Shown here one piece after another: positions 10,140-56,094 of a DNA stretch of 64,000 nucleotides. This stretch comes from Alphaproteobacteria bacterium (GTDB lineage Bacteria; Pseudomonadota; Alphaproteobacteria; JASGCL01). Location: positions 1,105,416-1,169,415 of the forward strand of contig CBDHFN010000003.1 of assembly GCA_965262605.1 (NCBI GenBank), given 5' to 3'. The number at the start of each line of letters is the position of its first letter. Position 1 is the first letter of the stretch. The notes under the pieces are model-generated. The model saw nothing but the letters and a program-made list of their open reading frames with translations, was not told the DNA's origin and did not search any database. The position numbers were made by a program, and so were the translations under genes.

Positions 10140-10219
10140 GCAATACCAATTTTGTATTGCAGTGCGCCCGATTAGTCAAGTAAAAAATTTTAATGTTATA
10201 AATTAACGCGGCGATTTTA

Positions 10220-11247: not shown

Positions 11248-11634
11248 AATTATATTATAACAAAAAACTGCGAAAATTGCAAGCGAATTGAATGTGGATA
11301 TTATCCAATTTTAAAATAAACTTTCTTCGTAAAAAGATTTAAAAGCAATTTAGGTAAACGATTCTGCATGCTTATTACTTTGTAGGCAACGGAATAATAG
11401 AGTTTTAAACCAAGCCATTAAATAATCTACGCGACACAAAGCAACTCACCAAGTTCCATGGTTTCAAGGGTGCTGTTAAGAATTATTTTTGCCCCCGCAA
11501 AAGGTTCGCACCAGACGGAATTATAGGCTTGATGGTCAAAATTGCGCAGTAATTCAACCCAATGTTTAAATGGTTCAAGCATAAAGCAATTTTGTTTGGT
11601 ATAAAATTGCCCAAGTTCAATTTTTTCCATAATT

Positions 11635-13256: not shown

Positions 13257-14423
13257 TTATGTTCTTTGAATCGTATAATTGCTTCTGAACGGCAACATGG
13301 TAATATTATCGGCAAATTTGTCAGAAATGTTATTTTGGCAATCTTGATATTGAGGTTTTGATTGAATTGCAAGATGCCAAAAATGTTGAGCAAGAATATC
13401 ATTGCCTTGCCATTGCTTGGCAATCGCGTAGTTATTGTATAAAGCAGCATCAATTTCGTTAGTTAATATCATGTTAAGTTTTTCATTGGCTAAAATCGGC
13501 AATCCCAAATTCAAGTAATTAACACCCATCGCGAAATGCGATAAATAAAATAAATCGCGCTGATAGCCTTGATGCACAAGCTTATCAATATCAGGTATTT
13601 TAGATAATTCATGCAAAATTTCGTTTGATTCGTGAAAATACCCGCAAAACTGCTTAAATGAACTTAAAATCCATAATTGCATCGGTTTAGGAATCATTGA
13701 TTGGCTTAATGTGTTTTTAACTTTATCAAAAGGTAATAATCGGTAATTATGGGTTAAATTACGCTTAATTAACGGAAATTTTGATGAAATTGAGCCGGGT
13801 TGATTGCGATATTCGTATAAAAAATCATCGCAATATGAAATTTTTGCATGATTTAAAATTGCTTGCAATTTAAAAAAATAATCCTCGCCAGAAAGAGAAT
13901 AGGGTGAAAATGGATATTTTCTGGCAAATTCCGTATTAAATCCATGGCAAATGGCGGTCGGTTGCCAATGGCGTTCAAATTCAAAATAAATACCATGGGG
14001 TTGTTTTATAAAATCCGCAATTTTAAAAGCCGAAATTGATTGATTGGCAATATCATTAATGGTAAAATTAGGGTAAATTAAATCGCATTCTTGTTCGGCA
14101 AAGATTTGCAAATAAGTTTCAGCCGCATGGGCGGGTAAAATATCATCACTATCAAGCCACATACCATATTTAGTTTGAATTTGATTAATCGCATATTGCC
14201 GCAAATGCCCCAATGAAACCCGTGTTGGAATTTTTTCAATGGTGCAATTGTGAAAATTACAATCGCGCACGATTTTCAATGTATCATCGGAACTTTGGTC
14301 GTCAATGATTAATATTTTTGCGACATTATTAGCAAAAGCCGATAATATGCTTTCTTTGATGGTTTTTTCGGCATTGCGCGCCACCATACATATCGTCATA
14401 TCATGGTGAATATTTTTCGTCAT
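13257..14423 (-). CDS. family-2 glycosyltransferase with C-terminal extension
   Basis: GT2 N-domain (ICMVARNAEKTI...ILIIDDQSSDDT...DSDD) followed by about 150 aa of helical repeat-like sequence. Confidence 0.7.
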   Translation of the reverse strand: MTKNIHHDMTICMVARNAEKTIKESILSAFANNVAKILIIDDQSSDDTLKIVRDCNFHNCTIEKIPTRVSLGHLRQYAINQIQTKYGMWLDSDDILPAHAAETYLQIFAEQECDLIYPNFTINDIANQSISAFKIADFIKQPHGIYFEFERHWQPTAICHGFNTEFARKYPFSPYSLSGEDYFFKLQAILNHAKISYCDDFLYEYRNQPGSISSKFPLIKRNLTHNYRLLPFDKVKNTLSQSMIPKPMQLWILSSFKQFCGYFHESNEILHELSKIPDIDKLVHQGYQRDLFYLSHFAMGVNYLNLGLPILANEKLNMILTNEIDAALYNNYAIAKQWQGNDILAQHFWHLAIQSKPQYQDCQNNISDKFADNITMLPFRSNYTIQRT

Positions 14424-27104: not shown

Positions 27105-27295
27105 AATTGAGTGTATGGTTTATTTTAATGTTATTTTTCGTAAGTTTAATTTTATATATAAACATATATATAAAATTAGAGTGGAAATAAATGTTTAGGT
27201 ATTATTTTTTGCCAAAATTCCAACGATTAATAAAAAAAGTCGCTGAATGGGATAATTTTTGGTATAAGGCGCAACGCAACCAGATAAGAAAAATT

Positions 27296-29503
27296 ATGGT
27301 ATCAAACAATCTCAATTTTAGCTTGTCTGTTATATCTTTAAGTTTTTTGCTGGCTTGTTCTAATTCAAAAAAATCAGAAAATATCACATTAATTGAAGAA
27401 TTATCAACTTTTGCGACAAATAATCAAGCCACAATAATTAAAGATTTTACCACTATTAAAGAGGGGCAAGCGGATGCCGTGGGTATTTCTAATAATCAAA
27501 TTGCATCTGGTGTTAAATTAAATGCCGCCGAATTAAAAAATGGTGTGATTTTCACGGGAACTATTTCAAAATCACTTAATTCTGGCGAAAATGTCAAGGT
27601 AACGCTGGGCGGTGTAAGTGTCATTGCGGTGGTTTCAGGCACAATTTGGAGTGCCGTTTTTGATTCGGATATGGTTAATATACCGAATAATTTAAATGCA
27701 GATTTAACTGCCGAAATTGTCAATATATCAGGACAGCAAGGAGTCATATTAAGCGCAACCACAATTAATAAAATTATTATTGATCAAATTGCACCAAATG
27801 CCCCAAGCCTAAAATTAAGCGCAGGTATTTCAGACGGCGCAACCCAAAGTGAAGCAATAGCCCAAACTGGTGTCGTTTTGGTTGCGGGTGAATCGGGCGC
27901 AACAATTGTCATTACGATTACGAATAATACTCAAATCATCACAAAAACTATATTATCAGCGGGCAATAATGAAACGCCCATAGTTTTAACCCAATCCGAT
28001 ATAACCACGCTTGGAATTGGTTTAATATCGGTAACTGCTGTGGCAACTGATGTATCTGGCAATCCGAGTTTACCTGCGAGCATAAGTTTTAATTTGACTA
28101 GTATTGTCCCGTTAAGTGCGAATCCCCCGATTATAAATGCTGTAAACATTAATGCGAATGGAAATTTAGACATAATTTTTGATGAAGCGACAATTGGCGA
28201 ACTAAGCGCGGCTCTGCCCAATGATATTGTTGCCCAAAATCCGACTATGACAACAGCAACCATCAAAATTGCGGGTTTAATAACAAATAATATTAACGGA
28301 TTTAATTTAACCGATTCTACGGGTAATGAAACGCATTATTTGAAACAATCCACGGCAACCGCCGATAATGATATTATAATTGGCACTTCGGGCAATGATA
28401 ATTCATTATTGGGTGGTGCTGGACGGGATATTATTTTGGGCGGTGCGGGCAATGATACTATTGATGGTGGTGCAGGGGTTGATTTTGTATTTGGGCAATC
28501 CGGGAATGATATTTTAGTATTTGATGCAACTGATGCTAAAATTGATGGCGGCGTGGGTGATGATACATTAAAAGTAAATAATGCAGCGACTTTAACCATA
28601 AATAGTGGTAATTTAATAAATATAGAGGATGTTGATGCGTCAGCGTCAAATGCTATCGTTAATATTACCGGTGATAATGGGGCAAATATTATTATTGGTG
28701 GTCATAATAATGATATTTTAAATGGTGCTGATGGCGCCGATCAATTATCAGGTGGCGATGGAAATGATAGTATTAACGGGGGGAATGATGCGGATAATAT
28801 TTCGGGCGGCGGCGGCGATGATATATTAAATGGCGGTAATGGTGGAGATAATTTAATCGCCGAAGATGGCAATGATACGATAAATGGCGGTAATGGCGGT
28901 GATAATTTAAATGGTGGCTTGGGTATGGATATTTTAACGGGTGGCGCGGGTGATGATAATTTAAATGGCGGTAATGGTAATGATATATTTAATCTTGATT
29001 TATCGCTCGGCATTGATACTATCGCCGATTTTGGTGGGTCAAGCGGATTAGAAACTGATATTATGCAAATATCAGGTTTATCACCATCAAGTGCCCCCAT
29101 AGTTGCGCAAAATTCAGGGGTTATTGGCAATATTTCCCAAGCATTTACAGAAAATGATACGGATAATATAAGCATCGCCAATGCAAAATTTTATATTATT
29201 GATGTTGCGGGAGTTTTAGATTTTGATGGTATTGGCAATAATGGCGGAAATTTTGTCAATATGGACGGGGCGGGGATTATGGCGAATTTTGTGGCATCTA
29301 ATGGTAAGGCGTTTAATGCAAATGTTATTGCCAATGACAAAGCCGTGTTTTTATTCGCCAATGGTTCGGGTGAAGCGCAATTATGGTTATTTAACTCGGG
29401 TGATTCATCGGTTGATGCAACTGATTTTACTAAAATTGCGAGTTTATTAGATTCATCATTTGACTTTCGTGCATTTAATCATCAGCATATTGAATTTATT
29501 TGA
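27296..29503 (+). CDS. large surface lipoprotein with Ig-like repeats and RTX-type (hemolysin-type) calcium-binding nonapeptide repeats
   Basis: Start at the ATG at 27296 gives the lipobox LLAC. Central repeated beta-rich modules. C-terminal run of GGxGxDx[LIF] repeats (GGAGNDTIDGGAGVD..., GGNGGDNL..., GGAGDDNLNGGNGNDIF). Confidence 0.7.
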   Translation: MVSNNLNFSLSVISLSFLLACSNSKKSENITLIEELSTFATNNQATIIKDFTTIKEGQADAVGISNNQIASGVKLNAAELKNGVIFTGTISKSLNSGENVKVTLGGVSVIAVVSGTIWSAVFDSDMVNIPNNLNADLTAEIVNISGQQGVILSATTINKIIIDQIAPNAPSLKLSAGISDGATQSEAIAQTGVVLVAGESGATIVITITNNTQIITKTILSAGNNETPIVLTQSDITTLGIGLISVTAVATDVSGNPSLPASISFNLTSIVPLSANPPIINAVNINANGNLDIIFDEATIGELSAALPNDIVAQNPTMTTATIKIAGLITNNINGFNLTDSTGNETHYLKQSTATADNDIIIGTSGNDNSLLGGAGRDIILGGAGNDTIDGGAGVDFVFGQSGNDILVFDATDAKIDGGVGDDTLKVNNAATLTINSGNLINIEDVDASASNAIVNITGDNGANIIIGGHNNDILNGADGADQLSGGDGNDSINGGNDADNISGGGGDDILNGGNGGDNLIAEDGNDTINGGNGGDNLNGGLGMDILTGGAGDDNLNGGNGNDIFNLDLSLGIDTIADFGGSSGLETDIMQISGLSPSSAPIVAQNSGVIGNISQAFTENDTDNISIANAKFYIIDVAGVLDFDGIGNNGGNFVNMDGAGIMANFVASNGKAFNANVIANDKAVFLFANGSGEAQLWLFNSGDSSVDATDFTKIASLLDSSFDFRAFNHQHIEFI
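28330..29010 (+). repeat. array of RTX nonapeptide (GGxGxDxUx) coding repeats
   Basis: More than 20 degenerate 27-bp coding repeats; this also creates a spurious proline-rich ORF on the minus strand. Confidence 0.6.
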
Positions 29504-33372: not shown

Positions 33373-34005
33373 ATGAGAAAAATATTAACAATAATACCAG
33401 CTTTTATTTTGGCAATGGGGATTTTATTCGCGCCAGTAATGGCGCAAAATACAGATAAATCAAAAAAAACAGAGACGAAAACTGAACAAAAAGCCACAAC
33501 AACCAAAAAAACTGAAAAAACTGAAAAAACTGAAAAAACTGAAAAAAAGCAAGAATCAAAACCAGCCGAAGATATTAAGGAAAAGAATCTTGGAGTTTTT
33601 GGTCCTTGGAGTGCCAAAGTTTATTACGAAAATCAGCAAAAAATCTGTCATATTTGGAATCGTAGCGTGAACAAAAACGGCTTAACAGGCTTTAGCTTCA
33701 TTACCCATCGTCCCAATTGGAAACGCCGTAATGAAGTAAGTTTTTCATTTGGGCAAGCTTTAAATCCAGACCAAGCCGTGGTATTAACGCTTAATAAAGA
33801 TAATAAATTTGAATTTTTTGCCCATGGCGAATCAGCATTTTTCAAAGAAAATGATTATACAAAATTAATAACTGATATGAAAAAAGCCAAAAAAATGAGT
33901 ATTGAAGCAATGTCAGCCAAAGGGAAGGAAAAATTAATATTTGAATTTTCCTTGAATGATATTGGCAAGGCTTTAGATGCAATTGATAAAGAATGCCCGA
34001 AATAA
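33373..34005 (+). CDS. secreted invasion-associated-locus-B (IalB)-like protein with an N-terminal KTE-rich repeat
   Basis: Signal peptide, (TEK)n low-complexity segment, then a domain ending ...ALDAIDKECPK, which resembles the IalB family C-terminus. Confidence 0.45.
   Translation: MRKILTIIPAFILAMGILFAPVMAQNTDKSKKTETKTEQKATTTKKTEKTEKTEKTEKKQESKPAEDIKEKNLGVFGPWSAKVYYENQQKICHIWNRSVNKNGLTGFSFITHRPNWKRRNEVSFSFGQALNPDQAVVLTLNKDNKFEFFAHGESAFFKENDYTKLITDMKKAKKMSIEAMSAKGKEKLIFEFSLNDIGKALDAIDKECPK
33511..33546 (+). repeat. perfect 9-bp tandem repeat (ACTGAAAAA)x4, in-frame (TEKTEKTEKTEK)
   Basis: Read directly from the sequence; degenerate copies lie upstream. Confidence 0.9.
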
Positions 34006-34517
34006 TGACTAATTTTTTTGTTCACGAATCAGCCTTTATTGATGAAAATGTAAAAATCGGCAAGGGCACTAAAATTTGGCATTTTTGCCATGTTTTGCCC
34101 GATGCAATTATTGGTGAAAATTGCAATATTGGGCAAAATGTTATGATTGATAAAGGCGTCATCATTGGTAATAAATGTAAAATTCAAAATAATGTCAGCG
34201 TATATGCGGGGGTGGAGTGCGAGGAGGGGGTTTTTTTAGGACCTTCATGTGTTTTTACAAATGTTATAAATCCCCGCGCCATGATTGAAAAAAAATCGGA
34301 ATTTAAGAAAACTTTAATCGGCAAGGGGGCAACCATCGGTGCGAATGCGACAATTATTTGCGGTATCACGATTGGCAAATTTGCGTTGATTGGTGCGGGG
34401 GCGGTTGTTAATCGCGATGTTCCCGATTTTGGTTTGGTAGTTGGCAATCCAGCGCGCTTAATTGGCAAAGTTGATGAACACGGCAATACTATTGAAAAAT
34501 ACCCTGCAAAAAAATAA
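34005..34517 (+). CDS. hexapeptide-repeat (LbH) sugar N-acetyltransferase (WbpD/PglD-like size class)
   Basis: 170-aa left-handed beta-helix repeats (IGKGTKIWHFCHV...IGENCNIGQNV...); TAATG overlap with the upstream gene. Confidence 0.7.
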   Translation: MTNFFVHESAFIDENVKIGKGTKIWHFCHVLPDAIIGENCNIGQNVMIDKGVIIGNKCKIQNNVSVYAGVECEEGVFLGPSCVFTNVINPRAMIEKKSEFKKTLIGKGATIGANATIICGITIGKFALIGAGAVVNRDVPDFGLVVGNPARLIGKVDEHGNTIEKYPAKK

Positions 34518-36887: not shown

Positions 36888-38408
36888 ATGGCAAAGAAAA
36901 AAATTGATTTTTTATTTGTAAATCCAAATAGCTCGCATCAGTCATATCAAGTTCTTGCAAATAAATTTAATGCAATTGAACCGCCGACTTGGGCGGTTTT
37001 ACTGGCGACAAGCCTTAATTCTAAGGGTTTTAAGTCAGAAATTTTAGATTGCGATGCTTTAAGACTTTCTTTGAATCAATCTTTAGAAGAAATAATCGCT
37101 TATAATCCGCGTATGGTTGTTATGATGCTTTATGGGCAAAACCCCAATGCAGGCACAAGCTCAATGATTCAAGCAATACCATTAGCTGAATTAATAAAAT
37201 CGCAAAATGCCGATATTAAAATTGTGATGGGTGGTTCGCATTCACAGGCTTTGCCGCGTCAAGTTATTGCGTTTCCATGTGTTGATTTTGTCTTGATAAA
37301 CGAAGGGGTGCAATCGTTATTTGCCCTTGGATTAAGCAATTTAAAAGATAATTTAGAAAATATTCCCAGTATTTTTTATAAATCAGATGGTAAAATTTGC
37401 CATTCTAACCATGCGAGCATTGTGTCATCAAGCGATTTAGATAAAGAATTACCGGGCTATGATTGGTCGCTTTTACCCGATTTAAATACCTATCGCGCGC
37501 ATTATTGGCATAATTTCTTTTCTGATGAAGGGCGTTCGCCTTTTACCGCGATTTATACTTCGCTTGGTTGCCAGTTTGCTTGCAGTTTTTGTATGATAAA
37601 TATTATTAACCGAACAAGTTTTGATGATACCGCCCATGCTGGACATTCATCAGGAATGCGATATTTTTCCCCAGAATTAATGTTGGCTGAATTTGATAAA
37701 TTAGCAAAATTAGGTGTAAAAAACATTCGCTTGTCCGATGAAATGTTTTTTCTTAACCGCAAGCATTATATTCCAATTTTAGAAGCAATTATTCAAAGAA
37801 AATATGATTTTAATATGTGGGCATATGCAAGAGTTGATTCGGTGCGCGAAGACCAATTAGCTTTATTTAGAAAGGCTGGCGTGCGCTGGATTGCGCTTGG
37901 CATTGAAACGGCTAATCAAAATGTCAGGCATGAGATTGAACGCGGAAAATTTAAACAAGTCAATGTGCGTGATATTGTTAAGTTAATTGAATCATATGAT
38001 ATTCATATTGTCAGTAATTTTATTTTTGGCTTGCCGAATGATTCCCTTCAAACAATGCGTGAAACCCTTGATTTAGCCAAGGAATTAAATACCGCGCATG
38101 CAAATTTTTATCCTGCTATGCCATTACCGGGTTCCCCGCTTTATATGCAGGCGTTGCAATCAGGCTGGCAACCATATGAAGATTTAGCAAAATATTCATT
38201 TTTATCCTATGAATCTTTACCTTTGGCAACTGAATTTTGCACGCCCCAAGAAATTTTAACATTTCGCGATAATGCTTGGCATGAATATTTTACTAACCCA
38301 ATTTTTTTAGATAAAATCGGAAAAAGCTTTGGTATGAAAAATAGAAGTAATATTGAAGAAATGACCAAATTAAAATTAAGAAGAAAAATTTTGGAAAATA
38401 ACGCATGA
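36888..38408 (+). CDS. B12-binding-domain radical SAM protein (class B rSAM)
   Basis: N-terminal cobalamin-binding Rossmann-like domain, then CQFACSFC (CxxxCxxC) about 220 aa in. Confidence 0.75.
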   Translation: MAKKKIDFLFVNPNSSHQSYQVLANKFNAIEPPTWAVLLATSLNSKGFKSEILDCDALRLSLNQSLEEIIAYNPRMVVMMLYGQNPNAGTSSMIQAIPLAELIKSQNADIKIVMGGSHSQALPRQVIAFPCVDFVLINEGVQSLFALGLSNLKDNLENIPSIFYKSDGKICHSNHASIVSSSDLDKELPGYDWSLLPDLNTYRAHYWHNFFSDEGRSPFTAIYTSLGCQFACSFCMINIINRTSFDDTAHAGHSSGMRYFSPELMLAEFDKLAKLGVKNIRLSDEMFFLNRKHYIPILEAIIQRKYDFNMWAYARVDSVREDQLALFRKAGVRWIALGIETANQNVRHEIERGKFKQVNVRDIVKLIESYDIHIVSNFIFGLPNDSLQTMRETLDLAKELNTAHANFYPAMPLPGSPLYMQALQSGWQPYEDLAKYSFLSYESLPLATEFCTPQEILTFRDNAWHEYFTNPIFLDKIGKSFGMKNRSNIEEMTKLKLRRKILENNA

Positions 38409-39301
38409 CAAATGATAATTATCATCTTGATAATATTAAAAAATTTGAAAGCAATCAAGCAAAATTAAATTTTTTAAAGGATGTTGCGCTTGGCGAATCG
38501 GGGGTTTTCAATAAATTTGGCAATCATTTTAATATTATAAAATTTGATGAATTTAAATGTAATTTAAAAGAAGTTTTTATCAATGAATTGATAGAGACAA
38601 ATTTGGTTAATGCCACAAATTTAGCCAAAATTAATTTTGATTTGGGCAAATTACACCAAATAATCGCCCAAAATGATCAAATTTTTGACCCTTCGGGCAG
38701 AAATAATTTTATGTCCCAAATTTTTCAATTGACAAAAATCAAAAATGCTTATGCTGATTTTGTTAAAACCACGATTGCGCCGTTAATTGGTGAATTTTTT
38801 TATTTTCAAGACCAGCCAACTATCCGCGTTAATTTTCCATTTCCGGCAAATTATAATAAACGGGCAAATTACCACATTGATTTAATGTTAGGGCATTTGC
38901 CAATTATTTATAATTTTTGGTGGTCGTTAAATAATGTTTATGGTTCAAATAGCCTCTCAGTTGCCGATTATGATTTTTCCATTAATTTATTGAAAAAATA
39001 TGATTGGAATTTTGCTAAATTAGTTTATGACATTGAATTTAATGACGATTTATATAATGAAATTCGCCACCATAGCATTGATTTAAAGCTTAATTTTGGT
39101 GATATTGCTGTATTTAGTCCATTATGTTTGCATGCAACCCAATATAATACAACTGATACGACAAGGGTAAGTTTTGATTGCCGATTTATTTTAAAATCAA
39201 AATATGAACAATTAAATTTAACATATAAAGGGCTTGGTAATAAACAAATGCCGATGCAGCCCGGATATTATTACAATTTAAATCCGATATATACGCCTTA
39301 G
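38405..39301 (+). CDS. PhyH-like Fe(II)/2-oxoglutarate dioxygenase family protein
   Basis: HxD (YHIDLM), a distal His (CLHATQ) and RxS (TRVSFD) in PhyH-like spacing; 4-nt overlap with the rSAM gene. Confidence 0.45.
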   Translation: MTNDNYHLDNIKKFESNQAKLNFLKDVALGESGVFNKFGNHFNIIKFDEFKCNLKEVFINELIETNLVNATNLAKINFDLGKLHQIIAQNDQIFDPSGRNNFMSQIFQLTKIKNAYADFVKTTIAPLIGEFFYFQDQPTIRVNFPFPANYNKRANYHIDLMLGHLPIIYNFWWSLNNVYGSNSLSVADYDFSINLLKKYDWNFAKLVYDIEFNDDLYNEIRHHSIDLKLNFGDIAVFSPLCLHATQYNTTDTTRVSFDCRFILKSKYEQLNLTYKGLGNKQMPMQPGYYYNLNPIYTP

Positions 39302-44000: not shown

Positions 44001-44324
44001 ATGTTAATTATGGCGATGGAACAAAATAAATTTTCAACAAATTCGCAAGTATTGGAACGCACCAAACTTGATAAACCGCCTTTATACCAAGTTTTTTTAC
44101 TTAATGACGATTATACACCCATGGATTTTGTTGTGGAGGTATTAATTAGCGTATTTTTCAAAACACCCGAAGAAGCAACGAAAATCATGCTTAATGTCCA
44201 TGTAAGTGGCAAGGGATTATGCGGTAAATTCCCCAAAGAAATTGCGCAAATTAAGGTGAATCAAGTAATGTCAAGCGCACGGCAGAATCAGCATCCCTTG
44301 CAATGTATTTATGAAAAGGAATAA
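44001..44324 (+). CDS. clpS: ATP-dependent Clp protease adaptor ClpS
   Basis: Conserved ClpS core ([23 protein letters not shown]). Confidence 0.85.
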
Positions 44325-44325
44325 C

Positions 44326-45069
44326 ATGAGCGAAAAACCAAGAAAAATGATGACAAGAGCGCAAATTCATAAGCGCAATGCCCCGCAACAAAACCATGGT
44401 AATTCAAATGAAATATTGCAACAATTGCAAAAGATTTTTGGACAAAATTCAGGGCAGGGCGCAACGAATAATTCTTTGCCAAGCCCAATGCCCAAAACGA
44501 TGTTGGGGCATAATAACCCCCCCGAAGATTATAATTCGGATTTGCCCGAAACTATCAGCAATCTTTCGGTTTCATATGAATCGCGTGAAGATAGGCTTAT
44601 GCTAAGGGCGGGCACAACGCAATATCGCGAATTTCGTTATTGGATTACTTATCGTTTATATCGGTTGTTATTGGGTTTATTTAATCAAATTGAAGATGCG
44701 GGGCTTGACCCCAATATTCCCGAAGTATCCAAGCAAGCTGTGCGCGAATTTCAACGCGAAAGAAACCTGCAAGGCACGAATTTTAACGAAGAAATTGCCA
44801 AAGACCGCCCATATCTGCCGATTTTTGGCGAAAACCCGCTGTTAATTGATAAAATTGAAGCAAAAGTTAGCAAAAAAATCATTCAATTTGTCTTTACCAG
44901 TGATAAGCAAGTTACTTCGTTACCTTTGCCACGCGAAACGGCGATTGCCCTTCGCCATATGATGAATCAAGCGGCAAGTCGCGCCGAATGGGATAATCAA
45001 CCAATATATCAAAAATCTTCCAAAGATGAACCAGATAATACCAAACCAACCCCCGTGATATTAAATTAA
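44326..45069 (+). CDS. hypothetical protein occupying the position usually held by clpA
   Basis: RBS AAGGAA, ATG at 44326 directly after the clpS stop; Q/N/P-rich disordered N-half; no family recognised. Confidence 0.5.
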   Translation: MSEKPRKMMTRAQIHKRNAPQQNHGNSNEILQQLQKIFGQNSGQGATNNSLPSPMPKTMLGHNNPPEDYNSDLPETISNLSVSYESREDRLMLRAGTTQYREFRYWITYRLYRLLLGLFNQIEDAGLDPNIPEVSKQAVREFQRERNLQGTNFNEEIAKDRPYLPIFGENPLLIDKIEAKVSKKIIQFVFTSDKQVTSLPLPRETAIALRHMMNQAASRAEWDNQPIYQKSSKDEPDNTKPTPVILN

Positions 45070-45070
45070 C

Positions 45071-46207
45071 ATGAACCAAAAATCATTAGACGAATATTTA
45101 AGATTAGGGCAGATTTATTATGCCAAAGGGCATTATTTTGAAGCTTTAAACGAATTTGAAGGGGCATATCGCATCAACCCCGAAGATTGCGAAATTTTGG
45201 AATGGCGCGGGGAAATTGCGATAAGGCTTGATGATTATGACACTGCTGCGCAAGTATTAACCATGGCGCGCGATAATTTTTCGGAAAAATTTAATGATTG
45301 GTCGCAATTGGGTTTGGCTTTATATGAGTGCAGGCGCGCAACCGAAGCGGTATCGGCACTTACCCGTGCGATTGAACGGGACACCAATGATATTATTGCC
45401 CATGCAAATTTAGGGCGGGCATTGTATGAAATGTTTTTGAGCGAAGATAAAGACGAAGCCATCACTATCGCCAAAAAATGGATGCGGCAATTTCCCGAAA
45501 ATCCCGATGCTAAACATATGGGGGCGGCGATTGCGAACGAAGCATTACCTGATAGGGCGAATCCAGAATTTATTGGCGGGTTATTTGACGATTTTGCCGA
45601 AAATTTTGATTATAGCCTGTCGCAACTTGGCTATCAAGTGCCCAAGAAATTAATTAATCTTTTGCATCATCATATTAACCCAAAATCTGAAGGCTTAAAA
45701 ATTCTAGATTTAGGGTGCGGGACGGGGGCTTTGGGCGCAGAATTTGTTAAGCAATTTCCATTAAAGATTGATAAATTAATCGGCATTGACTTGTCGTATA
45801 AAATGCTGAACAAAGCCGAAAATCATGGAATTTATACGCAATTAATCCGCACGGATATAGTTGATTATTTAAATATTGAAAATCAATCATTTGATTTAAT
45901 TTTGGCGGGCGATGTTTTATGTTATTTTGGCTTATTGGATAATATTATGCCTGCGATTAAATACGCCCTGAAACCTTCGGGATTATTGGCTTTTTCTTTG
46001 GAATTATTGCCCCCAGCGGTTGGCATGTATCAATTACATGCTTCGGGACGATATAGGCATCAAGAAAATTATATTAATGCCTTGATGATTGCCCATAATA
46101 TGCCCCAAATTACCGAAGAAAAATGTATTTTGCGGTATGAATATCAACAACCAGTAAATGGTGTGGTGAAATTATGGCAAAAAACACAAATGGGGTTTAA
46201 TGTCTGA
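45071..46207 (+). CDS. TPR-repeat SAM-dependent methyltransferase (COG4976-like)
   Basis: N-terminal TPRs and a class-I MTase motif (ILDLGCGTG). Confidence 0.7.
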   Translation: MNQKSLDEYLRLGQIYYAKGHYFEALNEFEGAYRINPEDCEILEWRGEIAIRLDDYDTAAQVLTMARDNFSEKFNDWSQLGLALYECRRATEAVSALTRAIERDTNDIIAHANLGRALYEMFLSEDKDEAITIAKKWMRQFPENPDAKHMGAAIANEALPDRANPEFIGGLFDDFAENFDYSLSQLGYQVPKKLINLLHHHINPKSEGLKILDLGCGTGALGAEFVKQFPLKIDKLIGIDLSYKMLNKAENHGIYTQLIRTDIVDYLNIENQSFDLILAGDVLCYFGLLDNIMPAIKYALKPSGLLAFSLELLPPAVGMYQLHASGRYRHQENYINALMIAHNMPQITEEKCILRYEYQQPVNGVVKLWQKTQMGFNV

Positions 46208-48212: not shown

Positions 48213-49613
48213 ATGCGGTTACAAGATTTTTTTGATAGTTTGCAATACAGAAATTATATTTTTTCTGAGATAATAATTAATGAAAAAATTGAAATATTTT
48301 ATGATTTATTGCCCGCATTGGAATTATTTGAATCGCAATCATATATTCGTGCATTTAACGAGTTTAATAAGCTTGAAAATCGTTCCAAACTTTATAATCG
48401 CATTAAATATTTTTATTTATTATTATGTAAATCGCAACTTATTATTAATGAAAATGAAATTAATAATATTGTCGCAAATTTTAATAAATTGCACCAAAAT
48501 TATGGCTGTATGGCTTCGTTATTTGAAATTGGGCAATTATTAGCGGCAAGTAATCCAGATGAAGCACTGAAATATTTCGCGTTATATTATGATAATAATT
48601 TAAACATGTTAAGAAATCTTGATTTTAGTGGCACATATCAGCAAACATTGGTTTTTATTGAATGTTATAGTAAATTTGTTGCAGAAAAACCTGATTTTAT
48701 TGACCCACAAAAAATTGGCATCAATGACATATCGGCACAAGAATCTCATTTTGATTTTAGTGATTATTTAATGTTTAACCCATACCCGCACGATAATAAA
48801 GTCGGCGATAGTTATATTTTGGCTTCGTTGTTAAAATATATTAAGGATAAATTCCAAAAGAAAATTATTGTTTTTACGCAAACGAATAAAATCCCAATAT
48901 TTAAATTTTATGATTATATTGATGCGGTTTTGCCGATGGAATCATATCAAAATATTGTATGGCAATTGCCAAAATCCAATAAATTCAAAATTGGGTCTGT
49001 GTTTCATTATCATTATGGATTCGCCCATATTTCCAATACGCCTTCGCCATATTTAAGTGATTTTTTAGCGCGAAAATTAGGCTTAAAAGATATTAACTTC
49101 GTTGCACCATATCAATCCAATTTGGCAATGAAAATTAATGCCTGTAAAATGCTTCATCAGCTTAATTTAACGAAGAATAAAACAATAATTTTTAATAAAT
49201 ATTCCAATACCATAAAGCTTAAAATATTGGGTGATGATTTTTGGATTAATCTTGCTATACAATGCCAAAATCTTGGTTATGAAGTGGTATTTAATGATTC
49301 GCAAGCTTTTCTTGATTTTAAAACTTGTTTTGTGCCATATCAATATTTAGCCGAATTTGCAGAGCTTTGCGGGTGTTTAATAACCGTGCGCACAGGAATT
49401 TGCGATATAATTGCCAATCAGAATCCTGATGGCAAGATGATTATTATCATGAATAATCAACAACAATTCCCAATGGGTTATTTTTCATTAAAATTAATGT
49501 ATAATAATCAAAATATTCTTGAATGCCATGAAAATAATATTGATGAATTGCATCAACAAATTTTTGAATATCTTGACAATAATTTCGCTTTGGGTAATAA
49601 GAAAAACACTTGA
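48213..49613 (+). CDS. hypothetical protein with a helical-repeat N-half and a GT9-like C-half (third paralog of the TPR-GT9 family)
   Basis: V-G-D-S motif (NKVGDSYILASLLKYI) aligned to the G[LF]GD motif of the ORFs at 11635-13191 and 54772-56094. Confidence 0.4.
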   Translation: MRLQDFFDSLQYRNYIFSEIIINEKIEIFYDLLPALELFESQSYIRAFNEFNKLENRSKLYNRIKYFYLLLCKSQLIINENEINNIVANFNKLHQNYGCMASLFEIGQLLAASNPDEALKYFALYYDNNLNMLRNLDFSGTYQQTLVFIECYSKFVAEKPDFIDPQKIGINDISAQESHFDFSDYLMFNPYPHDNKVGDSYILASLLKYIKDKFQKKIIVFTQTNKIPIFKFYDYIDAVLPMESYQNIVWQLPKSNKFKIGSVFHYHYGFAHISNTPSPYLSDFLARKLGLKDINFVAPYQSNLAMKINACKMLHQLNLTKNKTIIFNKYSNTIKLKILGDDFWINLAIQCQNLGYEVVFNDSQAFLDFKTCFVPYQYLAEFAELCGCLITVRTGICDIIANQNPDGKMIIIMNNQQQFPMGYFSLKLMYNNQNILECHENNIDELHQQIFEYLDNNFALGNKKNT

Positions 49614-49645
49614 TTATTGCGGGTAAATATCATAAAAGAGCAAAT

Positions 49646-50881
49646 ATGAAAATAAAATCAGAATTTTGTCAAATTATAACAGAACGCGGATTGGGGCATC
49701 AATTCACGAATCTTGAAGCCTTAGATAATTTATTGGCGCGCGAAAAAAATATACCTTGTTATATTGGGTTTGATGCCACGGCAAGCTCATTGCATGTTGG
49801 CAGTCTTTTGCCGATAATGATTCTTCGGCATTTTCAAAAATCAGGGCATAAACCCATTGTTTTAATGGGTGGTGGCACGACAATGGTGGGCGACCCATCA
49901 GGCAAAGACGAAGCGCGTAAAATAATTACGCCCGAAATTATTCATGAAAATATCCAAGGAATCCAAAAAATATTCGCTAAATTCCTTACATTTGGTGATT
50001 CGGGCAATGATGCCATGATGGCGAATAACGCTGAATGGTTATTACCGCTAAATTATATTGAATTTTTACGCGATATTGGGCAATTCGTATCCGTCAACCG
50101 CATGTTGCAAATGGATTCGGTGAAATCGCGACTTGAACGCGAAAGTCATCTTAGCTTTTTGGAATTTAATTATATGGTTTTGCAAGCTTATGATTTTATG
50201 GAATTGCACCGAAGATATAAATGCCGTTTGCAAATGGGCGGTTCTGACCAATGGGGCAATATCGTCAGTGGTATTGAGCTTGCCCATAAGATAGATGGTG
50301 CAGAGCTTTTTGGTCTAACCACGCCATTATTAACGACTTCTTCGGGGGCGAAAATGGGCAAATCCGCCAAAGGCGCGGTCTGGCTTAACGAAGATTTATT
50401 AAGTTCATATGATTATTGGCAATTTTGGCGCAATACCGAAGATGCCGATGTTGTTAGATTCCTTAAAATCTTTACCGAAATTCCATTGCCTGAAATTGAA
50501 AAATTAAGCAAATTACAAGGGCAAGAAATTAATGAAGCGAAAATTATCCTTGCCAATCACGCAACTACTATGGTGCATGGTGCAGAAAAATCAAAATCTG
50601 CGTTTGAAACTGCGCAAAATCTTTATAGCGCGGGTGTTATGGGCGGCGATATTGCGCAATATAAATTGTCAAATTACCCTATAAATATCGTTAATTTATT
50701 GGTTGATTGCGGTTTTTGTTCGTCAAATTCTGATGCCAGACGCAATATCCAAGGTGGCGCAATCCGCCTTAATGATAGGGTAATAAGCGATGCTAATTTT
50801 CAAATTACCAATAATGAAATGATAAATAATACGGCAAAATTATCCTTTGGCAAGAAAAAACACCTGCAAATAATTTTGTAA
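49646..50881 (+). CDS. tyrS: tyrosyl-tRNA synthetase
   Basis: HIGS-type motif (LHVGSL), KMSKS motif (KMGKS), C-terminal S4 domain; ATG at 49646. Confidence 0.9.
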   Translation: MKIKSEFCQIITERGLGHQFTNLEALDNLLAREKNIPCYIGFDATASSLHVGSLLPIMILRHFQKSGHKPIVLMGGGTTMVGDPSGKDEARKIITPEIIHENIQGIQKIFAKFLTFGDSGNDAMMANNAEWLLPLNYIEFLRDIGQFVSVNRMLQMDSVKSRLERESHLSFLEFNYMVLQAYDFMELHRRYKCRLQMGGSDQWGNIVSGIELAHKIDGAELFGLTTPLLTTSSGAKMGKSAKGAVWLNEDLLSSYDYWQFWRNTEDADVVRFLKIFTEIPLPEIEKLSKLQGQEINEAKIILANHATTMVHGAEKSKSAFETAQNLYSAGVMGGDIAQYKLSNYPINIVNLLVDCGFCSSNSDARRNIQGGAIRLNDRVISDANFQITNNEMINNTAKLSFGKKKHLQIIL

Positions 50882-50900
50882 ATTCAAATTTGAATTTTTT
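50881..50900 (+). terminator. AT-rich perfect 16-bp palindrome followed by a T-run, 3' of tyrS
   Basis: AATTCAAATTTGAATT (50881-50896) then TTTT. Confidence 0.4.
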
Positions 50901-50965
50901 GTAAAAAAATATTTGACAGATATAAAAAATTATGATAAGCTAACATTAAAATAGTGAGGTATTTT

Positions 50966-51136
50966 ATGAGTAAAATTGAACCAATTACTAGTGGCTCTAG
51001 AATTTTAAGTCGGGAGGCTACGCCAATTTTAAAGAATTTAAATGAAATTCAACCAAGTAGAGGCGATATTGCGAAGCCTAGATTCGTGCAGGATAAAGTT
51101 TCTGTAAGTGAAGATGCGGCTAAAAAACAACAATAA
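50966..51136 (+). CDS. small hypothetical protein (56 aa) with strong RBS
   Basis: GAGG 7 nt upstream of the ATG; its stop abuts the dapB stop (convergent); N-terminus MSKIEPITSGSR. Confidence 0.3.
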   Translation: MSKIEPITSGSRILSREATPILKNLNEIQPSRGDIAKPRFVQDKVSVSEDAAKKQQ

Positions 51137-51913
51137 TTATCTTAAAAAATCAGCAACTACATATAGCCCATTTTGCTGTTTTGCAAGCCAGCTTGCAAGT
51201 TTAATTGCGCCATCAGCGAATAATGCCCTATCATTTGCGCGATGCGAAAGGGTAATCATATCATTTTTACCCGCAAAAATAACGCTATGGTCGCCAATGA
51301 CTTGTCCGCCACGCAATGATGCAAAGCCAATTTTACTTTCTTCGCGCCCTTGATTGTTAAAGCCAAGATGATGGGTATGAATCTGGGAATTATATTCTTT
51401 GCCTAAACCCTTGGCAACAGATTCTGCCAATAAAATTGCGGTGCCAGATGGGGAATCTTTTTTTTGCCGATGGTGCATTTCAAGAATTTCAATATCATAG
51501 TCGGCTAATTGTTGCGCAGCCTTTTCAACAAGTTGTGATAGAATATGCACGCCTAAGCTTGTATTATTTGCATGAAGGCACGCAATTTTTGCAGAAGCCT
51601 GCTTGATAGTCGCAAAATGCGATTCGGACAATCCCGTAATACAGCATAAATACGCAGTTTTATTTTTAATGGCATGGGTGATGTTGGAATTAATCGCATC
51701 AGCATTGCTGAAATCTATAACAACATCTGTATTTGCCCAATCGGCATGAACAATATCAGTATAATGAATATCGCCAATTTTTTGCCCAATTAATGGGTGA
51801 TTTTCACGAATAATTGCGCAAGTAATATTTTGATTATATAAATTACAAGCCGAAATTACAGCATTTCCCATTCTTCCATTTGCACCAATAACTCCAATAT
51901 TAACCTTGTTCAT
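51137..51913 (-). CDS. dapB: 4-hydroxy-tetrahydrodipicolinate reductase
   Basis: N-terminal NAD(P) motif VGANGRMG and the DapB catalytic region. Confidence 0.85.
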   Translation of the reverse strand: MNKVNIGVIGANGRMGNAVISACNLYNQNITCAIIRENHPLIGQKIGDIHYTDIVHADWANTDVVIDFSNADAINSNITHAIKNKTAYLCCITGLSESHFATIKQASAKIACLHANNTSLGVHILSQLVEKAAQQLADYDIEILEMHHRQKKDSPSGTAILLAESVAKGLGKEYNSQIHTHHLGFNNQGREESKIGFASLRGGQVIGDHSVIFAGKNDMITLSHRANDRALFADGAIKLASWLAKQQNGLYVVADFLR

Positions 51914-51918
51914 AATGG

Positions 51919-52359
51919 TTATTTTACGGTTATTTTGCGTTGCTCAGTAAAAAGGGCAGGAAAATATGAAATATGATTTTGGTCGGTAATTAATAATTGC
52001 AATATATGCGAACCGGGCGGTAAATCTAACTCATATTCTATTTCGCCATTTCCCAAGTGAATATCTTTTGGAATAAGTTGCGGACCGGGTTTGAACGCAT
52101 CATCATTTTTTATCATGGTTACTATATCTTGCCTGTCATATAAAATATGAAAATGCGACGAACCTTTTTTCTTGGTTGATGCAATATCAAGATTTGTTGC
52201 GGACATTTTGAATTTTACAGGATTCGCAACAACTGAATTTGCCTTAGGTTCGTCCCAAGTAATTGTCGCACCAGCAGGTAATTTTGTGCGTTGCGCATAT
52301 AATGGGCTTAAATTAACTAAAATAAAGCCAATTAGCGATAATATTAAATATTTTTTCAT
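51919..52359 (-). CDS. secreted DUF4399-like protein, tandem paralog A
   Basis: Signal peptide; shared motifs HFHIL, IHLGNG, LPPG and NHI with the adjacent paralog. Confidence 0.55.
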   Translation of the reverse strand: MKKYLILSLIGFILVNLSPLYAQRTKLPAGATITWDEPKANSVVANPVKFKMSATNLDIASTKKKGSSHFHILYDRQDIVTMIKNDDAFKPGPQLIPKDIHLGNGEIEYELDLPPGSHILQLLITDQNHISYFPALFTEQRKITVK

Positions 52360-52826
52360 TTGATTGTTAATTTAATTCTGTCTGATGCAACGATAGGGTA
52401 ATGCGCAATATGATTTAAGTCGCCCAATACTAATTGTAAAAAATATTCACCGGGGGGCAATCGTAAAGAATATTTAAATGACCCGTCGCCTAAATGTATA
52501 TCATCAACATCAAAAATAGGAGGCTGTGATTTTGCAGAATCTTTTTTCACACGGCTTAAATAATCTGGTTTATTGATTAAAATATGAAAATGCGCTTTGT
52601 TTTTAACTTCCTTGGGTCCAATTTCAATGCCCTCAGAATTAAACTGCAACTTAATTTCGGCGCCAGTTAGTAAATTTTCTGAATCTATTACAGCACCATT
52701 AGAAGGAAATTCCCAATAGATTTTTGCGCCCTTTGGCGATAAAGTTCTGTTATATTCTTGGGTATTGGCATAGCCAACAAGTAGTGCTAAACCCATAACA
52801 ATTGCTGTAATTTTCATTATACACAC
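52356..52826 (-). CDS. secreted DUF4399-like protein, tandem paralog B
   Basis: Same motif set (HFHIL, IHLGDG, LPPG, NHI); 4-nt overlap with paralog A. Confidence 0.55.
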   Translation of the reverse strand: MCIMKITAIVMGLALLVGYANTQEYNRTLSPKGAKIYWEFPSNGAVIDSENLLTGAEIKLQFNSEGIEIGPKEVKNKAHFHILINKPDYLSRVKKDSAKSQPPIFDVDDIHLGDGSFKYSLRLPPGEYFLQLVLGDLNHIAHYPIVASDRIKLTIK

Positions 52827-52906
52827 CTTAATTGTAAATCATCATTAAAACATAACAAAATTATAATCGCATGTCAAGAAAATATCTATTTTTTTATAAA
52901 ATTAAA

Positions 52907-54070
52907 TCATGACTTGCGAATCACGCATTCAATTTGTTTTTTCTTCAAGTTTAAGCAAGCTGCTTGGGCATTTTTTTGCGTAAGACTGCTTATCATTGCC
53001 CTAAAAAAAACTTTTTTATTATTTTGAATTTTTGAAACTTCATAATCAGCATCGCGTTTGATGCTTGTCGGTAAGAAGTTAAGTGCGTGCTTGATTCGTT
53101 CATTCGCATCTTGTTTTTTGGAAAATGAGCCAACTTGAATCATAAAATCATCATTTGCCTTAGCTTTTTGCATGTTTTTAACGGGTTTTGTGTTATTGAC
53201 CATAGTTATTGGTTTAGAATTTTTACTTAAATTAGCTTCATTAGTATAATCATCAGCCCGTTTAGTATATTTACTTAGCAAATCAACCATTATTCTGTCG
53301 CGAATCGCCCCAGTTTGCCCGCCTAAAACAACCGCAACTACGCGTTTATTATCAATTTCTGCGGAAGTTAAAAGATTATAACCGCTTAAATTAATATACC
53401 CTGTTTTCATGCCGTCCGCACCAGCAAACATATCTAAAACTCGGTTATGTCCGCCGTAAGTATTGCCTTCAAATTCAAAACTCCGCAGTGAAAAATAATG
53501 ATAATATTGCGGAAAATCTTGAATCATTCTTCTGCCTAATTGCGCAAGGTCAAATGCAGTCGTAATTTGCTGATTATCGGGCAATCCAGACGCATTTTGG
53601 AATGTAGTTTTTGCCATGCCAATTTGACGGGCTTTACGGGTCATGAGTCTTGCAAATTCCTCTTCGTCGCCGCCACCTAAATATTCACCAACGGCGGTTG
53701 CAACATCATTGGCGGAACGAACAACCATCGCGCGAATCGCTGTATCAACGGGAATTACATCGCCCTGACGCAAATTTAGCTTTGTCGGCGAAGCCATTGA
53801 TGCTTGTTTAGAAACTGGAATTAAGGTATCCATGGTAATTTTACCCTCCGACAAGCGTTCAAACAACATATATAATGTCATAACTTTGGTAATGGAAGCG
53901 GGATAAGCTAATTCTTGCTCTTCGGTTGCTTGTAATATTTTACCACTTTGTTGTTCTACAACTATTGTGGAAAATTGCCCGCGTTGTGCGTGCGAATTAT
54001 TAGTGGTAATTAATGTTGCCAAAAAAAACACAGCACAATACGCAATATTGCTTAAAAATTTCTTCTTCAT
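52907..54070 (-). CDS. D-alanyl-D-alanine carboxypeptidase (PBP5/6 class) with C-terminal SPOR domain
   Basis: SxxK (ASITK), SxN and KTG motifs; C-terminal roughly 75-aa SPOR-like segment. Confidence 0.8.
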   Translation of the reverse strand: MKKKFLSNIAYCAVFFLATLITTNNSHAQRGQFSTIVVEQQSGKILQATEEQELAYPASITKVMTLYMLFERLSEGKITMDTLIPVSKQASMASPTKLNLRQGDVIPVDTAIRAMVVRSANDVATAVGEYLGGGDEEEFARLMTRKARQIGMAKTTFQNASGLPDNQQITTAFDLAQLGRRMIQDFPQYYHYFSLRSFEFEGNTYGGHNRVLDMFAGADGMKTGYINLSGYNLLTSAEIDNKRVVAVVLGGQTGAIRDRIMVDLLSKYTKRADDYTNEANLSKNSKPITMVNNTKPVKNMQKAKANDDFMIQVGSFSKKQDANERIKHALNFLPTSIKRDADYEVSKIQNNKKVFFRAMISSLTQKNAQAACLNLKKKQIECVIRKS

Positions 54071-54269
54071 TAGGTTTCACCTTAATTTGTTGCTTTACGA
54101 CACTCTTTGAGGTGTCTTGGGAATATTATATTTAATTTTATTATTAAATCAAGTTATTTTTTTACTTAATGTTATAATTTTTTTTGAAATAATTGTAAAT
54201 ATTACTTGCAATATTAATTAATATTTGATATTCTTGATTTAAGAATAAAAATATCATGGAAAACATGAA

Positions 54270-54581
54270 ATGAAGAATCATCAACGCGATACTAATTCAA
54301 TAATTAAACAAGCCGTAATTATATTTATTGGCTTCGGTTTACCATTTTACCTGTTTTTTCACATTTTAACGGGCGAGAGGTCGTGGGCTTCCTTGGACAG
54401 AAAAACTAATATTTTAAATCAAAAAATTGATTATTTATCGCAATTAGAGGAAAATAATAAAATCACAGAAAAAAAATTGATTTTATTGCAAGATAAAAAA
54501 ATTGACCAAGATTTATTGGAAGAGCTTGCCCGCAAGAATCTTGGCTTGATTTACCAAAATGAAATTCGGATAAAAGAGTAA
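54270..54581 (+). CDS. ftsB: septum formation initiator family protein (FtsB/DivIC-like)
   Basis: 103 aa, single TM plus coiled coil. Confidence 0.5.
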   Translation: MKNHQRDTNSIIKQAVIIFIGFGLPFYLFFHILTGERSWASLDRKTNILNQKIDYLSQLEENNKITEKKLILLQDKKIDQDLLEELARKNLGLIYQNEIRIKE

Positions 54582-54682
54582 ATTATTTCTTGCTTTAATG
54601 GTAATTTTAGCCTATAAATGAATAAATTGTTATTATTGCATAGTTTATAATAACGATAAAATATTTTTTTGTGTTTATTTAT

Positions 54683-54700
54683 GCCAATAAGCTTATTGGC
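54683..54700. repeat. perfect 18-bp palindrome GCCAATAAGCTTATTGGC between convergent genes
   Basis: Read directly; a weaker IR (GTTATTAT...ATAATAAC) lies about 35 bp upstream. Confidence 0.7.
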
Positions 54701-54771
54701 GCACGAGTATCCACAAGCATAAAAACAGGCGACAGAATTTATTTTGATTTAATTTCGGTTAAAGGCAATAA

Positions 54772-56094
54772 TTAATTCATCAGCGATTGATTAATATTGC
54801 GCATGGCTTCATGCCAATCATGACGGGTTTTTTGTTGCGATATGTTTAAATTCGGATACCAATAAGATGGCTGGTTAAGCGGATACCATCGCCAACAACT
54901 ATCGGCTCTGTTCGGCATATAACAGGGCAAATCCATGCTTGCCCCCAAATGAATTAACGCCGAATCAACGCTTATTAAGGCATCGCAATTTTTTAAAATT
55001 GCACAAGCGGTTGCAAAATCGCCCAAGCGATTTCCTAAATCATGGACAAATAATTCTTGATAAATTTGCTTGACTAATGGCGGGAAGGGGGGCGGTTGCA
55101 AGCCAATAATATAATATTTATGGTGTAAATTTTTTAATTCGCGCCATGCTTCAATTGGTGGAACTCTGCGGGCATGAATAAATCCAAATTGCCCATCATG
55201 GCGTCCAGCGCAAACAAGCGCAAGAATATTTTTGCCCCCCGCAAGCTTTTTTAATTCGTGATACCAATTTTTAATCTCGGCTTCATCGGCTTGCCAATTT
55301 GGAGCTTTGCCAACGGCGTGATTCATTTTTGACCCCATAAAATTATGGATTAACCACAGACCTTGAATGAAATTATGTTCAATTTCTAAGCCATTTTTTG
55401 TGTGAATCGCCCCAAAAGCATCAGAAAATTCCTTGATTTTAAGATGCTTGAAGTTAATTTGCATTAAGCGCAATAATGCTTGCGGTGCGCGAATAGAAAT
55501 GGCGCGGGCTTTGTTAAAATATGGCATGTCGTAAATATTTTCTAAATATCGGCTTGCCATGAACGAATCACCAAAACCAAGATTTGCCGCCAAGACAATA
55601 TCTTGATTCGTTAAATCTTGCCCCCAAAATTCGGGGATTTTGCCTTGTAATTTTGGTATATAATCAATTTGCCCTTGTTTAAGATAATCAAAACCAATGT
55701 CCCATTGCCCTTGCCGCAAGTAGAATTCTCCGCTAAAATGGCAAAAATATGCCGATTTTATGCCTAATTCATTGGCTTGAGCGATAATTTCAAGGGCAAG
55801 TTCATCGTGAGAAAGCCAATCGCATAATGGCACTAAGAAATCAAACAAATTTTCAGTAATTACGCCAGATTGGCGGGCATATAATAAATGTTCAAGGGAA
55901 TCTTGGCACTTTCCCAAGAAAAATTCACAAATTCCAAGCGTGTAATTTAATATGGCATGGGTTGCATTATTATGGTATTCGGGGTATAATTCCGTAGTAA
56001 TTTGCAAAAAATTTTGACGCGATAATAAGGTTAAACACCTTACTGACAAGGCGTCTTGGAAATTCATAAGGTTTGATTTATGCGGGTTGTGCAT
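54772..56094 (-). CDS. TPR-repeat plus GT9-like glycosyltransferase (paralog of 11635-13191)
   Basis: G-F-G-D motif (NLGFGDSFMASRYL) and a C-lobe pattern (DALISVDSALIHLGASMDLP). Confidence 0.6.
   Translation of the reverse strand: MHNPHKSNLMNFQDALSVRCLTLLSRQNFLQITTELYPEYHNNATHAILNYTLGICEFFLGKCQDSLEHLLYARQSGVITENLFDFLVPLCDWLSHDELALEIIAQANELGIKSAYFCHFSGEFYLRQGQWDIGFDYLKQGQIDYIPKLQGKIPEFWGQDLTNQDIVLAANLGFGDSFMASRYLENIYDMPYFNKARAISIRAPQALLRLMQINFKHLKIKEFSDAFGAIHTKNGLEIEHNFIQGLWLIHNFMGSKMNHAVGKAPNWQADEAEIKNWYHELKKLAGGKNILALVCAGRHDGQFGFIHARRVPPIEAWRELKNLHHKYYIIGLQPPPFPPLVKQIYQELFVHDLGNRLGDFATACAILKNCDALISVDSALIHLGASMDLPCYMPNRADSCWRWYPLNQPSYWYPNLNISQQKTRHDWHEAMRNINQSLMN

Follow-up and report, generated by a model that had tools for sequence, protein, structure and literature searches.

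Two alphaproteobacterial proteins that join tetratricopeptide repeats to a GT9-type fold are candidate glycosyltransferases of the FlmG class

We analyzed a 64,000-nucleotide stretch of an alphaproteobacterial genome (GenBank assembly GCA_965262605.1, contig CBDHFN010000003.1, positions 1,105,416 to 1,169,415; hereafter, the window). An initial annotation, made from the letters of this DNA, had proposed that the window encodes three paralogous proteins in which tetratricopeptide repeats (TPRs) or similar helical repeats are fused to a heptosyltransferase-like domain, together with a TPR-fused S-adenosylmethionine (SAM) methyltransferase. The four open reading frames (ORFs), here called A (11635-13191, minus strand), B (54772-56094, minus strand), C (48213-49613, plus strand), and D (45071-46207, plus strand), are all present in the ORF list, and at the level of the fold, the fusion of a TPR-type helical-repeat region to a GT9-fold domain is confirmed for A, B, and C. 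The proposed relationship is not: as judged from sequence profiles, A and B are distant relatives and probably further members of a known, little-studied class represented by the flagellin glycosyltransferase FlmG, and C belongs to a different family.

Protein A (518 amino acids [aa]) consists of a TPR domain followed by a GT9-fold transferase domain. Its repeats (residues ~28 to 190; 12622-13110, minus strand) are recognized as stretches of Pfam TPR_2, TPR_1, and TPR_14 with E values down to 8.5e-13 and, by analogy with the flagellin-binding TPR domain of FlmG (PMC7591256), are presumed to form the acceptor-binding module. The GT-B catalytic domain occupies residues 201 to 515 (11647-12591, minus strand; domain hidden Markov model [HMM] envelope) and contains a G-L-G-D-E motif (residues 257 to 261; 12409-12423, minus strand) whose Asp is the presumed catalytic base. 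The C-terminal 322 residues of A retrieved 22 relatives, all of approximately 500 to 550 aa and with the same TPR-plus-domain layout. Full-length profiles searched against the PDB were dominated by TPR matches, so the catalytic domains were cut out. The family profile matches RfaF (1psw; E = 5.5e-4), 3tov (E = 0.017), and WaaC (E = 0.067); weak matches to PF01075 (E ≤ 1) occur in 11 of 20 family members, and A itself has none.

Protein B (440 aa) is a divergent member of the same family, with a TPR-like helical-repeat domain at its N terminus (residues ~6 to 140; 55675-56079, minus strand) and a G-F-G-D-S motif (residues 173 to 177; 55564-55578, minus strand), which a structure model places between a strand (165 to 169) and a helix (174 to 183). 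Its PF01075 score of 18.3 bits lies under the gathering threshold of 22 bits. Among 5.8 billion proteins, only two relatives of B were found, an orthologue with 50% identity and a TPR protein of 578 aa.

BLASTP between single sequences lacks the sensitivity to compare these proteins, for which profiles and models were needed. A and B are only about 15% identical, and BLASTP matches a 75-residue segment of the C-lobe alone (E = 5e-4). When the A-family and B-family profiles are compared with hhalign, they align over 400 columns (probability, 100%; E = 3.3e-40) that take in the helical region together with the G-x-G-D motif and C-lobe; from an alignment of this strength and length, we conclude at the profile level that A and B are true, though distant, relatives.

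The motif that the initial annotation had assigned to all three proteins, G-[LFV]-G-D-S/E, holds for A and B and fails for C, which reads K-V-G-D-S and falls outside the strict pattern. Exactly two window ORFs of at least 80 aa, A and B, contain G[LFV]GD[SE], where 0.08 would be expected; a relaxed four-residue version, [LFVIM]GD[SE], turns up eight times across the window and has no diagnostic value. In profile-to-PDB alignments, GLGDE (A), GFGDS (B), and VGDS (C) all fall on the V-G-D of RfaF, and the structure models put the motif in the β1-α1 turn of the transferase N-lobe, outside the TPR region. The concern that it might be a generic TPR artifact is therefore dispelled. Across the combined A/B family, the two Gly residues and the Asp of the motif are invariant, as is one Asp of the C-lobe; the Glu of GLGDE is invariant in the A branch only and is replaced by Ser in B. 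The C-lobe position that corresponds to the D-S/T-G of GT9 enzymes reads V-D-S-A in B and I-A-N-I in A, and S, D, A, or T occur there across the A/B family. In GT9-type enzymes, the Asp of this N-lobe motif, Asp13 in WaaC, is taken to be the catalytic base. For the protein heptosyltransferase TibC, superposition on WaaC singled out Asp-110 as this base (PMC4358343).

Protein C (466 aa) has the same two-module layout, with a TPR-like helical-repeat domain (residues ~16 to 158; 48258-48686, plus strand) preceding a GT-B domain (residues 181 to 458; 48753-49586, plus strand; relatives match residues ~180 to 455) that carries the V-G-D-S motif (48801-48812, plus strand). BLASTP finds no match between C and A or B, and the single C sequence does not align with the A and B profiles. 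A first search for relatives recovered only C itself, and a metagenome scan found none; an exhaustive HMMER search of 1.84 billion representatives recovered 229, mostly of 300 to 350 aa. A profile of 43 of these relatives aligns with the A/B catalytic profile weakly and in register (hhalign; probability, 57%; E = 1e-4; 215 columns), pairing N-K-V-G-D-S with Q-G-L-G-D-E and L-I-T-V-R-T-G with V-V-S-I-A-N-I. The alignment of C-terminal domains that the initial annotation had set as its check is thus clear for A and B and only weak for C. The domain HMMs of the A/B and C groups do not match one another's proteins, and no other window ORF matches either HMM. Separate HMMs and this weak profile tie argue for two families rather than three paralogues, with C placed by its profiles in an unnamed GT9-fold family of its own, related to A and B only at the fold and profile level.

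The C-family profile matches RfaF (E = 0.008), and 5 of the 43 relatives match PF01075 at an E of ≤0.01, with no match for C itself. The family conserves xGD/E, FW..LA..L...GY.VVFN, and, in place of the GT9 D-S/T-G, R-S-G..D; C carries R-T-G at this last position. Only a handful of its relatives share the N-terminal domain of C. One protein, P0030, is 37% identical to C over the full length and is not encoded in the window; it is very probably a paralogue elsewhere on the same chromosome. The composition of C (28% GC; 24% GC at third codon positions) differs from that of the window (36% GC), and A, B, and D are ordinary in this respect (39 to 41% GC). C therefore looks like a lineage-restricted, duplicated, and compositionally foreign gene within a string of housekeeping genes.

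The GT-B folds of these proteins are nearest to solved GT9 structures. Our structure comparison gave two values for each match: 19.3 and 17.8 for the GT9 protein 3tov, 18.7 and 18.6 for RfaF (1psw), 17.0 and 16.7 for WaaC, 16.7 and 15.0 for TibC, and 15.4 and 17.3 for PnsB1, a GT9-like subunit of the chloroplast NDH complex, with the next match at 11.4 and 11.2. PnsB1 illustrates how such a fold might be kept by a catalytically inactive scaffold or adaptor, and A, B, and C could be read in the same way. We consider this improbable, since the motif residues G-x-G-D and the C-lobe Asp are invariant in the A/B family and xGD/E and R-S-G are conserved in the C family, which is the pattern expected from selection on an active site.

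To place A and B in a wider context, we scanned one genome per species with the peptide EQGLGDEI and a narrower A-type alignment. The scan returned at least 554 relatives of the A/B family; those listed are mainly from Alpha- and Betaproteobacteria, with some from Gammaproteobacteria, Planctomycetes, Gemmatimonadota, and other groups. Gene neighborhoods were tallied over 78 loci from the scan, all from different species, and copy numbers over 80 loci that include these 78. Two or more copies are present in 51 of the 80 loci, and 25 of 208 family proteins contain two to four catalytic domains and reach up to 2484 aa. The description of the window as holding an expanded family in a reduced genome is not supported by this comparison, as its two A/B-type copies are few next to arrays of up to seven in 17 kb in the sampled environmental genome assemblies. 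Tandem arrays are seen, for example, at L080:2671-11750, L056:2477-13629, and L078:2109-13392 (loci numbered L003 to L080), and giant fusions with three or four catalytic domains are seen at L033:1792-9246, L061:4461-11156, and L040:5172-11390; the fusions in L033 and L040 adjoin flagellin genes.

Genes for type IVa (PilA-type) pilins adjoin family genes in 17 of the 78 loci; in 12 of these the gap is at most 350 bp, mostly with both genes on one strand. Flagellin genes adjoin family genes in 6 loci. Taken together, pilin or flagellin genes lie beside family genes in 23 loci, a strong association because the rough random expectation per 17 kb is only a few percent. In the 17 pilin loci, one or two type IVa pilin genes come after the array of A/B-type genes, often at a distance of no more than 350 bp. 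We found no paper describing such pilin linkage for this family of TPR proteins with a GT9 fold. In a Pfam census of 150 neighboring ORFs, FkbM methyltransferases (10) and type IV pilins (9) rank highest, followed by FliS, epimerases, and GT2 glycosyltransferases; T2SS-F genes are also among the neighbors. The suggestion in the initial annotation that these enzymes decorate the cell surface is thus partly supported, with protein modification as the form that the evidence favors.

This gene linkage recalls FlmG, which O-glycosylates flagellin in Caulobacter crescentus and Brevundimonas. The C. crescentus enzyme attaches pseudaminic acid to all six flagellins; flagellin is bound by the TPR domain, and donor specificity is determined by the GT-B domain (PMC7591256; bioRxiv 10.1101/2022.03.25.485807). 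The C. crescentus protein has 596 aa, with TPRs in residues 1 to 313 and the GT-B domain in residues 309 to 596, and is encoded by the first gene of the flmGH operon (PMC7591256). On a contig from Phenylobacterium (Caulobacteraceae), genes for flagellin, FlaF, and FlbT are divergent from a gene for a 587-aa TPR protein, which is followed by a 193-aa ORF. Residues 263 to 583 of the 587-aa protein match the A/B domain HMM, built without it, at 270 bits (E = 3e-81); C gives no match to the same HMM. On the Caulobacter map, flmGH presumably adjoins flbT-flaF. Because a gene at the position of flmG matches the A/B HMM and agrees with flmG in size and synteny, FlmG very probably belongs to the A/B family.

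We favor, with somewhat better than even confidence, the view that A and B belong to the FlmG class and, as soluble glycosyltransferases of the cytoplasm, carry out TPR-guided protein O-glycosylation. In such a mechanism, the repeat domain would bind a particular acceptor protein, with filament subunits such as flagellin as the likeliest candidates, and present the acceptor's Ser/Thr hydroxyls to the cleft between the two lobes. The C-lobe would bind the nucleotide sugar, and the invariant Asp of G-x-G-D, at the start of the first N-lobe helix, would take the proton from the acceptor hydroxyl, in the manner of GT9-type enzymes. Flagellin or some other surface protein is the likeliest acceptor for A.

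The surroundings of A offer hints about its partners and its donor. Directly upstream of A lies a gene for a GT2 glycosyltransferase (13257-14423, minus strand) that matches PF00535 over residues 10 to 136 (E = 3.9e-14) and has a weak TPR-type match over residues 297 to 365. With this possible TPR-like C-terminal region, it would be a further fusion of a repeat domain to an enzyme, one not mentioned in the initial annotation. It is preceded by a SpoIIE-type phosphatase, and the order phosphatase-GT2-A is kept in a related contig (L083; 82 to 88% nucleotide identity). The GT2 protein is a possible partner enzyme with which A may act. A test of its resemblance to GmaR, the flagellin O-GlcNAc transferase of Listeria, gave generic GT2 matches only (e.g., TarS). 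Downstream of A, beyond a variable stretch, fliO-fliP are found at a distance of 1.5 to 2.6 kb. The variable stretch itself (10140-11696; 25 to 30% GC) contains a membrane ORF of 281 aa that matches no family, plus an ORF of 89 aa that, by eye, looks like a fragment of a DNA methyltransferase; L083 has in its place an ORF of at least 477 aa, also DNA methyltransferase-like by eye and without a match in the window.

In a sister genome (L081), the A orthologue (P0009; 81% identical overall) lies divergently beside ADP-heptose synthesis genes (L081:160-2510), namely, hldE, which encodes PfkB and cytidylyltransferase-like domains, and an hldD-type epimerase gene with a FNVYGP..HKG.MAS signature. 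This adjacency is our sole clue to the donor; because of it, ADP-heptose may be the donor of A and is the most plausible candidate. A more ambitious proposal follows, which we offer tentatively and think unlikely: A would be a TPR-guided protein heptosyltransferase that transfers heptose from HldE/HldD-derived ADP-heptose to flagellin or another surface protein, and the FlmG class would amount to a GT9-fold family of very large size whose tandem arrays glycosylate type IV pilins and flagellins combinatorially in the cytoplasm.

The same observations can be read differently. hldE and hldD normally supply the lipopolysaccharide (LPS) core, the nearest structures to these proteins are LPS heptosyltransferases, and a GT2 enzyme adjoins A. 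Moreover, FkbM methyltransferases, epimerases, and GT2 enzymes are frequent beside A/B family genes, and a Butyrivibrio member of the C family lies in a glycopolymer cluster with LicD, TylF methyltransferase, and cytidylyltransferase genes (two other C-family members have unremarkable surroundings). A and B could accordingly be unusual heptosyltransferases, or related transferases, that act on glycans, building the LPS core or an envelope glycopolymer, with the repeat domain serving assembly or localization. This seems to us a doubtful explanation.

Several points weigh against TPR-guided protein glycosylation and the donor proposed for A. No flagellin, pilin, neuB, pse/leg, or heptose synthesis gene lies within the 64-kb window, and hldE/hldD homologues are likewise missing from the other 80 loci searched; the hldE-hldD adjacency is known from a single genome and is absent from the window. 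The donor of FlmG is CMP-pseudaminic acid, so the fold does not reveal donors within the class. The placement of FlmG in the A/B family draws on synteny and size and in part on the Caulobacter gene map, and most of the pilin-linked loci come from Betaproteobacteria and so do not count as independent cases. The Asp of the GT9 D-S/T-G is absent from A (I-A-N) and replaced by Arg in C, and no member exceeds the PF01075 cutoff. Finally, B and C lie among housekeeping genes with no candidate substrate gene adjoining, and the neighborhood of B is not conserved in the sister genome.

The initial annotation had proposed to look for candidate substrate genes next to these enzymes. The window encodes no such flagellin or pilin, there is no candidate substrate gene beside B, C, or D, and only fliO-fliP lie near A. 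B is flanked by genes for a DD-carboxypeptidase, ftsB, fabF, and mltG, and its orthologue has different neighbors, three genes away from another family member. C and D belong to a codirectional, partly overlapping string, clpS, orf252, D, tyrC, enoyl-CoA hydratase, C, and tyrS. Some distance from A (14 kb), a 770-aa protein with RTX calcium-binding nonapeptide repeats is encoded (27191-29503); it may be a secreted protein and is a conceivable target of glycosylation.

A host interaction had also been suggested, under which these proteins would be effectors, secreted to glycosylate host proteins. Other intracellular bacteria have glycosyltransferase effectors with repeat domains, this chromosome is AT-rich and small (1.72 Mb), a single, highly fragmented assembly and its read sets supply the closest relatives, and C is compositionally foreign and has a lineage-restricted paralogue. 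However, no obvious signal peptide is apparent when the N termini are read, no secretion-system genes or chaperones are adjacent, there is no indication of secretion or of host targets, and B, C, and D lie among housekeeping genes. Because the A/B family is widespread and far more expanded in many environmental metagenome-assembled genomes, we rank this explanation lowest and regard it as very improbable.

If A and B are FlmG-class enzymes, as we favor, they bear on the cytoplasmic O-glycosylation of bacterial surface proteins, of which little has been mapped. The 2020 description of FlmG presented it as the founding member of a class not known until then; this class probably has the heptosyltransferase-like GT9 catalytic fold, is very widespread, and is linked to type IV pilin genes as often as to flagellin genes. 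The fold assignment, the size of the family, and the pilin linkage are the most interesting by-products of this analysis. For the organism itself, the prediction is that a small, AT-rich genome keeps at least two FlmG-type enzymes and two copies of a second type combining TPRs with a GT9 fold, and glycosylated flagellin or other glycosylated surface proteins are therefore worth seeking there. Should the ADP-heptose link of A hold, it would provide a simple soluble system for TPR-directed protein heptosylation.

Protein D (378 aa) is a genuine fusion of TPRs to a class I SAM methyltransferase, as had been proposed, with Pfam TPR_16 and TPR_2 matches on residues 4 to 160 and Methyltransf_25/11/31 matches on residues 206 to 309; its nearest solved structures are small-molecule methyltransferases. 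A 252-aa ORF without Pfam or NCBIfam matches (44311-45069) overlaps the end of clpS and terminates a single base ahead of the D start codon, a spacing that suggests cotranslation with D. The hexapeptide protein, E, which had been placed at 34005-34517 and called a sugar N-acetyltransferase, is a real acyltransferase ORF that runs from 33993 to 34517, with 34005 as an internal start; it matches the NeuD/PglB/VioB subfamily of sugar acetyltransferases best, at 101 bits and thus under the cutoff of 160.8, so that the name sugar N-acetyltransferase is plausible only. E is flanked by carA and an unannotated ORF. We considered a functional link of D or E with the transferases and rejected it, as nothing supports one and D is not of the FkbM type seen beside family arrays. 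Two tandem paralogous DUF4399 proteins of 146 and 156 aa (51919-52826) have hydrophobic N termini and genes that overlap by 4 bases. Elsewhere, a B12-binding radical SAM enzyme precedes a 2-oxoglutarate-Fe(II) oxygenase (36888-39301) that matches the "sporadic carbohydrate cluster" model TIGR04324 at 76 bits, under its cutoff of 150.

Comparison with known systems places A and B closest to FlmG. The solved GT9 heptosyltransferases matched here have 320 to 344 residues and no repeat domain, unlike A, B, and C; they act on Kdo or heptose of the lipid A-core, whereas the acceptor here is probably a protein, and A and C depart from their D-S/T-G motif. The FlmG class, like A and B, combines an N-terminal TPR domain with a GT-B domain at the C terminus in one soluble protein. 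In contrast to FlmG, A and B have no flagellin, pseudaminic acid, or legionaminic acid genes near them in the window, and the A orthologue is tied to ADP-heptose genes rather than to a CMP-nonulosonate pathway; the repeat domain of B is short and degenerate, and C falls outside the FlmG family. The BAHT enzymes (TibC and AAH) recognize their autotransporter substrates through a dodecameric ring, an iron-finger, and a β-hairpin thumb rather than TPRs (PMC4358343), and we found no autotransporter gene near A, B, or C. If its more ambitious interpretation were true, A would be the first enzyme to join BAHT chemistry with acceptor selection in the style of FlmG and OGT. GT41 enzymes (OGT and SPINDLY) follow the same logic as proposed here, the protein acceptor of a GT-B domain being chosen by a TPR superhelix; membership in GT41 itself was considered and rejected, as the GT41 catalytic domain PF13844 is not matched. 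A cyanobacterial Ogt, probably of GT41, modifies pilin, indicating that cytoplasmic TPR-glycosyltransferases can act on pilins (PMC9306852).

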